NCBI RefSeq assembly: GCF_002854065.1
Contig: NZ_CP024147.1
Origin: Escherichia coli
Lineage (GTDB): Bacteria > Pseudomonadota > Gammaproteobacteria > Enterobacterales > Enterobacteriaceae
Length of the DNA stretch: 64,000 nt
Strand: one strand, 5' to 3'
Shown: piece by piece, positions 5,850 to 10,418 of the stretch
Layout: every line of letters begins with the position of its first letter
Position numbering within the stretch: position 1 is the stretch's first letter
Notes under the pieces: model-generated
What the model was told of the DNA's origin: nothing
The model's input: only the letters and a program-made list of their open reading frames with translations
Databases searched by the model: none
Translations under genes and position numbers: made by a program

Positions 5850-7445
<1,596 letters not shown>

Positions 7446-7905
7446 TCATGTACGAGCTAAATGTTACTCCGTTAAAATAAATTAGTAACAAACGCCCTAT
7501 AACGTACTGAAAATTATGCCTGTGATCTAGCGCCAAAAATCAGTATTTCGGCGTGAACTCGCAAAATATTAACGATTCAGCCGTGATAGTGGGATAAACA
7601 CCTTAGAACGCCGGATAAAGACTGATAATTGTCTTCGACGGTCGGGTAAAACGAGACAACGCCCCGGCACGAATCACTACTTAACATTAAATTAACTTAT
7701 ACAATTCAGTTGCTTCAGTAGTATTGATGCTGATACGGCTGTTTTTTAAGCATAGACGGTCATTTGAGCAGGATTAAAATTGGTTTAAGGAATGTGATAT
7801 GAAAAATGACGCAGACAGTTACACCGTTTAAATGCAATAATCAGCCACGTTTCTCGTTAATAACAATACCAGTACCTGGTTTGCGCAAGGCGAAGGATTA
7901 TTTTT

Positions 7906-8850
7906 ATGAAGCTTAAGAACACCCTCCTGGCGTCGGCACTGCTTTCTGCTACGGCATTCTCCGTTAACGCAGCAACAGAACTGACACCGGAGCAAGCGGC
8001 AGCGGTTAAACCTTTTGACCGTGTAGTGGTTACCGGTCGTTTTAATGCTATTGGCGAAGCGGTGAAAGCCGTTTCTCGTCGCGCAGATAAAGAAGGTGCC
8101 GCCTCTTTTTATGTTGTCGACACTTCTGATTTTGGTAACAGCGGTAACTGGCGTGTGGTCGCTGACCTCTATAAAGCCGATGCTGAAAAAGCAGAAGAAA
8201 CAAGTAATCGCGTAATTAACGGTGTTGTCGAACTGCCGAAAGATCAGGCTGTTCTGATTGAACCGTTTGACACGGTCACCGTCCAGGGCTTCTATCGTAG
8301 CCAGCCAGAAGTCAATGATGCCATCACCAAAGCGGCAAAAGCGAAAGGTGCCTACTCTTTCTACATTGTTCGTCAAATCGATGCCAACCAGGGCGGCAAC
8401 CAGCGTATTACTGCATTCATCTATAAAAAAGATGCTAAGAAACGTATCGTCCAGAGCCCGGATGTGATCCCGGCAGATTCCGAAGCAGGACGTGCAGCTC
8501 TGGCTGCCGGTGGCGAAGCCGCGAAGAAAGTTGAGATCCCGGGTGTTGCGACTACCGCATCACCAAGTTCTGAAGTCGGTCGCTTCTTTGAAACCCAGTC
8601 ATCAAAAGGCGGGCGTTACACCGTCACGCTCCCGGATGGCACTAAAGTCGAAGAACTGAACAAAGCGACCGCAGCGATGATGGTCCCGTTCGACAGCATC
8701 AAATTCTCTGGCAACTACGGCAACATGACCGAAGTCTCCTATCAGGTTGCGAAACGTGCCGCGAAGAAAGGTGCTAAGTATTACCACATCACCCGCCAGT
8801 GGCAGGAACGTGGTAATAACCTGACCGTCAGCGCAGATCTGTATAAATAA
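7906..8850 (+). CDS. ydgH: Periplasmic protein with three tandem DUF1471 (YdgH/BhsA/McbA-like) repeats
   Basis: 314 aa with signal peptide; three internally similar segments of about 90 aa, each ending in an ADLYK-like motif. Confidence 0.9.
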   Translation: MKLKNTLLASALLSATAFSVNAATELTPEQAAAVKPFDRVVVTGRFNAIGEAVKAVSRRADKEGAASFYVVDTSDFGNSGNWRVVADLYKADAEKAEETSNRVINGVVELPKDQAVLIEPFDTVTVQGFYRSQPEVNDAITKAAKAKGAYSFYIVRQIDANQGGNQRITAFIYKKDAKKRIVQSPDVIPADSEAGRAALAAGGEAAKKVEIPGVATTASPSSEVGRFFETQSSKGGRYTVTLPDGTKVEELNKATAAMMVPFDSIKFSGNYGNMTEVSYQVAKRAAKKGAKYYHITRQWQERGNNLTVSADLYK

Positions 8851-8868: not shown

Positions 8869-8899
8869 AAGGCGGCTTGATGCCGCCTTTCGCATTTTT
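8869..8899 (+). terminator. Rho-independent terminator downstream of ydgH
   Basis: Stem AAGGCGGC / GCCGCCTT, 5-nt loop, followed by TCGCATTTTT. Confidence 0.6.
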
Positions 8900-9035: not shown

Positions 9036-10418
9036 ATGGAAAAGAAACTGGGACTGAGCGCACTCACCGCGCTGGTATTAAGCTCAATGCTGGGCGCGGG
9101 TGTTTTCAGTCTGCCGCAAAATATGGCGGCAGTTGCCAGCCCGGCAGCACTGCTCATCGGCTGGGGTATTACTGGCGCTGGCATTTTATTGCTGGCCTTT
9201 GCCATGCTGATCCTCACGCGCATTCGTCCCGAACTTGACGGCGGTATCTTTACCTACGCCCGCGAAGGGTTTGGCGAGCTAATCGGCTTTTGTTCCGCAT
9301 GGGGATACTGGCTGTGCGCAGTCATCGCCAACGTCTCCTATCTGGTGATCGTTTTTTCCGCGTTAAGCTTTTTTACGGACACGCCGGAATTGCGCCTGTT
9401 TGGCGATGGTAATACCTGGCAATCGATAGTCGGTGCATCGGCTTTATTGTGGATTGTTCACTTTTTGATCCTGCGCGGGGTGCAAACCGCTGCCAGCATT
9501 AACCTGGTGGCGACACTGGCAAAATTGTTGCCGCTGGGTCTGTTTGTTGTGCTGGCGATGATGATGTTCAAACTGGATACCTTCAAGCTCGACTTCACCG
9601 GACTTGCACTTGGCGTACCTGTTTGGGAACAGGTGAAAAACACCATGCTGATCACCCTGTGGGTTTTCATTGGTGTGGAAGGTGCCGTGGTTGTTTCTGC
9701 GCGTGCGCGTAATAAACGTGATGTTGGCAAAGCGACACTGCTGGCGGTTCTCTCCGCTCTGGGCGTTTACTTGCTGGTAACGCTGCTTTCGCTGGGTGTG
9801 GTGGCACGTCCTGAACTGGCTGAAATTCGTAACCCATCAATGGCCGGTCTGATGGTGGAAATGATGGGACCATGGGGCGAAATCATCATCGCTGCCGGTT
9901 TGATCGTTTCCGTTTGCGGCGCGTACTTAAGCTGGACCATCATGGCGGCAGAAGTTCCGTTCCTGGCTGCCACTCATAAAGCATTCCCACGCATTTTTGC
10001 GCGCCAGAACGCACAAGCTGCGCCATCCGCCTCACTGTGGTTGACCAACATCTGCGTGCAAATTTGTCTGGTACTCATCTGGCTGACCGGTTCCGATTAC
10101 AACACGTTGCTGACCATCGCCTCAGAAATGATTCTGGTGCCCTATTTCCTGGTCGGCGCGTTCTTGCTGAAAATCGCAACCCGTCCACTGCATAAAGCGG
10201 TAGGTGTCGGTGCCTGCATTTATGGCTTATGGTTATTGTACGCCTCTGGTCCAATGCACTTGCTGTTATCCGTTGTTCTGTATGCACCGGGGCTGCTGGT
10301 TTTCCTGTATGCGCGCAAAACGCATACACATGATAATGTACTGAACCGTCAGGAAATGGTGCTGATTGGCATGCTGTTAATTGCCTCAGTTCCGGCGACC
10401 TGGATGCTGGTGGGATAA
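9036..10418 (+). CDS. ydgI: APC-family amino acid antiporter (putative arginine:ornithine antiporter)
   Basis: 460 aa, about 12 predicted transmembrane segments; matches ydgI (arcD-like). Confidence 0.9.
   Translation: MEKKLGLSALTALVLSSMLGAGVFSLPQNMAAVASPAALLIGWGITGAGILLLAFAMLILTRIRPELDGGIFTYAREGFGELIGFCSAWGYWLCAVIANVSYLVIVFSALSFFTDTPELRLFGDGNTWQSIVGASALLWIVHFLILRGVQTAASINLVATLAKLLPLGLFVVLAMMMFKLDTFKLDFTGLALGVPVWEQVKNTMLITLWVFIGVEGAVVVSARARNKRDVGKATLLAVLSALGVYLLVTLLSLGVVARPELAEIRNPSMAGLMVEMMGPWGEIIIAAGLIVSVCGAYLSWTIMAAEVPFLAATHKAFPRIFARQNAQAAPSASLWLTNICVQICLVLIWLTGSDYNTLLTIASEMILVPYFLVGAFLLKIATRPLHKAVGVGACIYGLWLLYASGPMHLLLSVVLYAPGLLVFLYARKTHTHDNVLNRQEMVLIGMLLIASVPATWMLVG

Follow-up and report, generated by a model that had tools for sequence, protein, structure and literature searches.

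The ydgH gene of Escherichia coli encodes a Sec-exported, three-module periplasmic monomer that is most likely a non-enzymatic binding factor of envelope homeostasis, a reading to which we give a probability of roughly 0.55. The architecture is certain; a binding role is the most likely one because the protein carries no catalytic or cofactor signature, and a Pfam/NCBIfam search of YdgH returned no family besides DUF1471 types. The gene is of moderate interest as a conserved Enterobacterales periplasmic factor that alters susceptibility to cephalosporins and biocides. We analyzed it within a window of 64,000 nucleotides of E. coli DNA (contig NZ_CP024147.1), in which the locus has the following features:

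7383..7905, no strand: divergent pntA–ydgH spacer of 523 bp, between the annotated neighbors pntA (−) and ydgH (+)
7906..8850, + strand: ydgH CDS (ORF list, NF040471, identity to annotated ydgH)
8869..8899, + strand: terminator-like hairpin with an 8-bp stem (6 GC) and then a T-rich tail (terminator scan)

The reading frame at 7906–8850 (+) is intact, with an ATG start, 314 codons, and a TAA stop (ORF list and translation), and by inspection a Shine-Dalgarno-like AAGGA (7893..7897, + strand) lies 8 nt 5′ of the ATG. The product matches the equivalog model NF040471 (ydgH_STM1478) over its full length (560 bits against a cut-off of 350; aa 1–314 = profile positions 1–319 of 319), and the ORF is 100% identical to annotated E. 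coli ydgH (RefSeq label: DUF1471 family protein YdgH); the gene name in the original prediction was therefore right. Of 5426 complete E. coli genomes, 5423 have the gene. Several complete E. coli chromosomes match the 1351-base stretch around it at 100% identity, and the allele in the window is the common E. coli allele. Gene order is likewise that of standard E. coli: tqsA, pntB, and pntA, divergent from ydgH, followed by ydgI, folM, ydgC, rstAB, and tus. The intrinsic-terminator-like hairpin starts 19 nt after the stop codon, the next gene, ydgI, begins at 9036, and ydgH looks monocistronic. An antisense ORF overlapping ydgH (7828–8376, 182 aa, TTG start) was set aside as a mechanical ORF without supporting evidence. 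On the pntA side, the mechanical ORF at 5850–7436 (−) takes a GTG start 18 codons upstream of the annotated ATG (528 vs. 510 aa); we regard this longer start as an artefact of the longest-ORF rule and not as a real feature.

The Pfam family PF07338 (YdgH/BhsA/McbA-like, formerly DUF1471) matches YdgH with 203.2 bits (cut-off 27) in three stretches. To locate the copies, we cut the protein into segments and scanned each alone against Pfam. The E values of these segment scans are included in the following map of the protein:

7906..7971, + strand: Sec-type signal peptide, aa 1–22, MKLKNTLLASALLSATAFSVNA with ATE following the cleavage site (by inspection)
7972..8178, + strand: DUF1471 domain I, aa 23–91 (PF07338 copy I, aa 35–90 = 8008–8175, E = 5.5e-20)
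8179..8217, + strand: linker 1, aa 92–104, acidic (net charge −2)
8218..8430, + strand: DUF1471 domain II, aa 105–175 (PF07338 copy II, aa 119–174 = 8260–8427, E = 1.7e-19)
8431..8613, + strand: linker 2, aa 176–236 (no Pfam match, no domain similarity, z < 1)
8614..8640, + strand: RYTVTLPDG, aa 237–245 (conserved; predicted first strand and turn of a beta-hairpin)
8635..8847, + strand: DUF1471 domain III, aa 244–314, as in the crystal construct (PF07338 copy III, aa 259–314 = 8680–8847, E = 7.6e-22)

Single copies score 70–78 bits each. Pairwise Smith-Waterman alignments of the domains gave scores of 89–125 against a shuffle mean of about 23 (z = 14.4–22.7), and the observed score was reached by 0 of 1000 shuffles, so the similarity among the domains is far beyond chance; identity between copies is 37–39% across 64–67 aa. 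Three tandem copies had been predicted, and since the profile search (matches at about E = 1e-20) yields three and not fewer, that interpretation stands, as does the description of YdgH as a triplicated member of the BhsA/McbA/YdgH family, PF07338 being present three times. Apart from a long linker with much Ala, Ser, and Gly, we found nothing in favor of chance or low-complexity similarity with only one or two genuine domains, a reading with next to no probability that is already refuted by the three independent Pfam matches, the pairwise z-scores, three confidently folded domains in the AF2 model, and the retention of all three across orthologues.

The repeat unit is shorter than the ~90 aa originally proposed, consisting of a 55-aa Pfam core within a structural domain of about 70 aa (23–91, 105–175, and 244–314). 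Nor are the copies evenly spaced: the FD motifs lie 84 aa apart from start to start between copies I and II and 141 aa apart between II and III, because linker 1 has about 13 aa and linker 2 about 61–68 aa. The proposed start motif FD.V...G.[FY] holds in its strict form in copies I and II but not in copy III (FDSIKFSGNY), and the proposed end motif [AS]DLYK holds strictly in copies I and III but not in copy II (AFIYK); relaxed forms of both occur in all three. A hidden, degenerate fourth copy in the 61–68-aa linker between II and III was considered and rejected, since aa 175–260 give no Pfam match even at E ≤ 10 and the linker has z < 1 against every copy. A recent tandem duplication was rejected as well: DNA identity among the copies is merely 52–57%, with only short in-register matches around the KGA.SFY segment, and this low identity indicates that the triplication is ancient.

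We built an AF2 model of YdgH from a 30-sequence alignment (mean pLDDT 72.8, pTM 0.37). It contains three strand-helix-strand-strand domains with pLDDT of about 75–90 (domain II about 76–91) and gives no confident prediction of how the domains are arranged relative to one another. A sequence search of the PDB returned Salmonella domain III (4EVU, aa 244–314, E = 6.7e-41) and Salmonella domain I (2M2J, NMR, aa 18–91, E = 2e-36); these are the two solved domains, and domain II has no experimental structure. Foldseek comparison placed the model closest to 4EVU (TMt 0.95, rmsd 1.0 Å) and 2M2J (TMt 0.90, rmsd 1.2 Å), with SrfN 2MA8 at TMt 0.64. On this model the YdgH domains share the compact alpha+beta fold of 2MA8, 2MA4, 2M2J, and 4EVU. 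The signal peptide has K2 and K4, a hydrophobic stretch at aa 6–18, and VNA/A at aa 20–23, with V-N-A at positions −3 to −1; pLDDT is below 50 over aa 1–20, and there is neither a lipobox nor a cysteine in the whole 314 aa. The Sec signal is thus assigned here by inspection, and for the Serratia orthologue SignalP gives 1–22 and periplasmic localization has been shown experimentally (PMC11705850).

Much of this was known. The division into three domains has been in print since 2014, as have structures of domain I (2M2J) and domain III (4EVU); Eletsky et al. obtained each of the three domains by expression as a folded fragment, solved I and III, and described YdgH as monomeric with an RcsF-like fold. 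The triple-DUF1471 architecture recovered here is an accurate re-discovery of a known annotation and, being already textbook annotation, matters little as a finding of a genome scan. Lazarus et al. (bioRxiv 10.1101/2021.04.16.440252, 2021; Microbiol Spectr 2024, PMC11705850) reported that Serratia, Enterobacter, and E. coli (both BW25113 and the O157:H7 strain EDL933) become less susceptible to cefoxitin and third-generation cephalosporins, and more susceptible to ionic detergents, when ydgH is deleted. They found YdgH to be a compact periplasmic monomer whose periplasmic location is needed for function; domains B and C with the intervening region suffice and domain A is dispensable, including for the cefoxitin phenotype, so that domains II and III are the required ones (PMC11705850). 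The remark in the original prediction that the function is not well defined is fair for the mechanism, but understates these published structures, the periplasmic monomer, the domain requirement, and the phenotypes.

The proteins that share PF07338, a Sec signal, and a small alpha+beta fold with YdgH are YhcN, BhsA/YcfR, BsmA/YjfO, McbA/YbiM, SrfN, and YahO. These paralogues have one domain and about 85–100 aa, whereas YdgH has three domains and a long linker; SrfN is a dimer, and YdgH is a monomer. YdgH falls below every single-domain equivalog cut-off (YhcN, BhsA, BsmA, and McbA: 86.8 < 125, 52.2 < 90, 51.2 < 100, and 23.8 < 110), and is accordingly a paralogue of YhcN, BhsA, BsmA, and McbA that lies outside their equivalogs. 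The link of the single-domain members to biofilm and stress, also part of the original prediction, is made in the literature (PMC4092069). Salmonella enterica YdgH/SssB (STM1478, P0005) is the orthologue, with 90% identity over 314 aa, three domains with matching boundaries (21–91, 108–175, and 244–314), and point substitutions as the only differences; the virulence and secretion reports concern Salmonella. The YdgH proteins that Lazarus et al. studied in Serratia marcescens and Enterobacter cloacae as well as E. coli belong to the same family, with no difference in kind.

The family is narrow, with 129 of 1.84 billion 50%-identity representatives matching at E ≤ 1e-3. Every full-length relative has three PF07338 stretches, down to 36% identity, and the layout of a short I–II linker and a long II–III linker is common to orthologues over the same range. 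Named distant relatives with three copies occur in Budvicia and Thorsellia (Enterobacterales) and in Frischella and Gilliamella; Gilliamella belongs to Orbales in the NCBI taxonomy, which takes three-copy relatives slightly past the published statement that the family is confined to Enterobacterales. Module III with the RYTVTLPDG hairpin is the most conserved part (0.61, vs. 0.55 for modules I and II). It is also basic in most orthologues (+4 to +6; E. coli module III including the hairpin has net charge +5 and pI 9.6), whereas module I is mostly near neutral or acidic. The mature protein is free of cysteine in 27 of 30 orthologues.

Gene order around ydgH varies among these relatives. The divergent pntA–ydgH pair is kept in Budvicia and lost in Thorsellia, Frischella, and Gilliamella. 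In Budvicia (L002), the order is fnr-like, uspE-like, pntB, and pntA, divergent from ydgH; in Thorsellia (L003), a uspE-like gene stops 35 nt 5′ of ydgH on the same strand; and in Frischella (L004), an Fnr/Crp-family gene stops 30 nt 5′ of ydgH. Together, the three gene orders suggest an ancestral fnr-uspE-ydgH neighborhood, and co-transcription of ydgH with the upstream gene is possible in the Thorsellia and Frischella lineages. In E. coli, fnr and uspE lie away from ydgH. The Gilliamella proteins (P0271, P0189, and P0172; L005, 6001–6801) are compact, with 266 aa and three DUF1471 copies, and have neither the RYTVTL hairpin nor the long linker. Their genomic setting also differs, with rpoE-rseA-rseB and cyaA a few kb away; they could represent either YdgH in a reduced form or a triplication that arose independently.

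One relative, P0001 (398 aa), has four PF07338 copies, with linker 1 and domain II duplicated and the duplicated copies differing at about 10% of residues. It comes from a one-member cluster on a single 1757-nt ENA metagenome contig, and because it is one member on one short contig, it is more likely to be a chimera assembled from two strains than a genuine variant with four domains. The match to P0231 (920 aa, seven matched stretches) proved spurious, consisting of Big_7 Ig domains and low-complexity matches without DUF1471. The weak matches P0244 and P0202 have no PF07338, and P0239 has one copy; these three were left out of the comparison.

In a comparison of 13 divergent orthologues, RYTVTLPDG (aa 237–245) tied as the most conserved 9-mer (0.74 vs. 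a maximum of 0.75), with Y238, V240, T241, L242, D244, and G245 invariant or nearly so. All YdgH-type orthologues examined (36–90% identity) have it, and the compact Gilliamella proteins do not. In the AF2 model, strands at aa 238–241 and 247–250 form a predicted beta-hairpin at domain III's N-terminal edge. The Pfam model does not cover this stretch, and the crystallized domain III fragment leaves out most of it, the 4EVU construct beginning at aa 244 and being ordered from K247 (PMC4092069); in the literature it figures only as the tail of an “unstructured region”.

The rest of linker 2 is far less constrained. Conservation is 0.50 for aa 176–200 and falls to 0.32, with 31% gaps, for aa 201–233; aa 201–236 are hypervariable and of low confidence (pLDDT < 50 for aa 213–237), a helix at aa 193–207 is predicted with modest confidence, and linker length in orthologues ranges from near absent to about 60 aa longer. 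Linker 1 is poorly conserved as well (mean top-residue frequency 0.40). A semi-conserved motif, IPADSEAG, marks the start of linker 2 (aa 188–195 = 8467–8490), and is duplicated in the 377-aa relative P0142. An E. coli allele, P0042 (285 aa, from a 277-kb NCBI contig), has lost 29 linker residues, IPADSEAG included, by a deletion flanked by short AAGAAA direct repeats (window region 8440–8526). Because this natural variant lacks the motif, IPADSEAG is perhaps dispensable, or else the P0042 allele may be defective. For work on the mechanism of YdgH, mutagenesis has concrete targets in the conserved hairpin and in the linker motif.

In the model that we favor, the ydgH product is a Sec-exported, soluble, cysteine-free periplasmic monomer of three anciently duplicated alpha+beta modules, with a short linker joining modules I and II and a long, mostly disordered linker between II and III ending in the predicted RYTVTLPDG hairpin of module III. 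It would act by binding, as an accessory to peptidoglycan remodeling and/or to phospholipid and outer-membrane balance; the interaction surface would be made up of basic module III with its conserved hairpin, and of module II, and loss of the interaction would alter outer-membrane permeability. The conservation and basic charge of module III and the hairpin agree with the published requirement for II and III and with the binding of sulfate and sucrose-octasulfate by Salmonella domain III (PMC4092069). The envelope link is supported by the deletion phenotypes and by the detergent-resistant suppressors, which fall in yhdP (twice), mepM, ftsI, ftsA, lpxM, and several RNA-metabolism genes (PMC11705850). 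The suppressors are heterogeneous, proQ, pnp, fadR, and rapZ being among them, and point to no single pathway (PMC11705850). Against an envelope role, several obvious pathways have been excluded by others: ompC/ompF transcripts, the LPS ladder, and sigma-E activity did not change on deletion of ydgH, whether alone or in double mutants (PMC11705850). Against binding, no partner of YdgH has been found so far, and the high-throughput candidates FepE, YtfK, and OmpN showed no genetic interaction (PMC11705850). We infer the mechanistic part of the model; a more specific version of it, in which the hairpin is the docking element by which modules II and III bind an envelope partner, is unlikely. That partner could be an AsmA-like lipid transporter (YhdP) or a peptidoglycan endopeptidase/protease module (MepM, Prc). 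If so, YdgH would be dedicated to regulating the homeostasis of outer-membrane lipid or of the cell wall, which would account for the phenotypes with beta-lactams and detergents.

Three other functions have to be weighed against a binding factor of the envelope. YdgH (SssB) might mainly be a secreted virulence effector, released in outer-membrane vesicles and acting inside host cells, as has been proposed for Salmonella SssB and its paralogue SrfN; the mutant is reported to be attenuated in mice at day 1 post-infection. As an account of the main role this is improbable. The gene is core in E. coli of every lifestyle (5423/5426 genomes) and is also carried by bacteria of the environment and of insect guts (Budvicia, Thorsellia, and Frischella), the envelope phenotypes arise in vitro without a host, function needs periplasmic localization, and presence in vesicles could merely reflect periplasmic abundance. 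Effector and envelope roles are compatible and not mutually exclusive.

RcsF is a lipoprotein with a lipobox cysteine and two disulfides. A role for YdgH as an RcsF-like envelope-stress sensor or decoy, feeding Rcs or another pathway through contacts with outer-membrane proteins, is quite unlikely: the alpha+beta topology is similar, but YdgH has no lipobox, no disulfide, and no detectable sequence similarity to RcsF, and with zero cysteines in 314 aa and a weak fold resemblance alone it does not belong with RcsF. Foldseek does list RcsF 2Y1B for the YdgH model (probability 0.96, TMt 0.57), but the match is weak (E = 0.28, 14% identity). The DUF1471 fold has been reported as most similar to RcsF (PMC4092069; PMC12282094). 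Deletion of ydgH causes no sigma-E activation (PMC11705850).

On the basis of transcriptome clustering, pntA adjacency, and a growth lag in H2O2, YdgH was proposed in 2025 to have an oxidoreductive function or to protect against oxidative stress; this is very doubtful. The deletion mutant grew about 36% less 1 h after 2.5 mM H2O2 and had recovered by 5 h, ydgH was induced about 13-fold at 5 h (PMC12356324), and YhcN, a paralogue, carries the annotation peroxide/acid stress protein. Mature YdgH, however, has no cysteine, cofactor, or redox motif, which makes direct redox chemistry implausible; pntA is a divergently transcribed neighbor, in a pairing kept in Budvicia and lost in Thorsellia, Frischella, and Gilliamella; and a transient H2O2 lag is equally expected from changed envelope permeability. 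The effector, RcsF-like, and oxidative-stress readings are all weaker than the binding model but may hold as secondary roles.

The 523-bp pntA–ydgH spacer is unusually long, and the ydgH promoter must sit within it. A sigma-70-like consensus matched the + strand of the spacer twice (7753–7780 and 7812–7841), against 1.9 matches expected from shuffles, and because the matches are no commoner than in shuffles, we claim no promoter. For sigma-E, the consensus is GGAACTT-N15–17-TCAAA/TCTGA; a scan of 7383–7905 with this consensus gave no close match, and by eye there is only one weak candidate, TGAACTC-N16-TCAGC at about 7554–7581. The sigma-E promoter upstream of ydgH that is stated in PMC11705850 was thus not confirmed by the consensus scan of 7383–7905. 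An RpoE-holoenzyme SELEX peak is reported for the divergent spacer, its direction ambiguous between the two genes (PMC5493296). An Rfam search of the 523-bp spacer gave no family match, and an Rfam hit inside the CDS (DUF805b, antisense, 15 bits against a gathering threshold of 35.6) was taken as chance and rejected as a structured RNA. The spacer also contains a putative 10-codon ORF (MKNDADSYTV) with its ATG at 7800, about 100 nt 5′ of ydgH.
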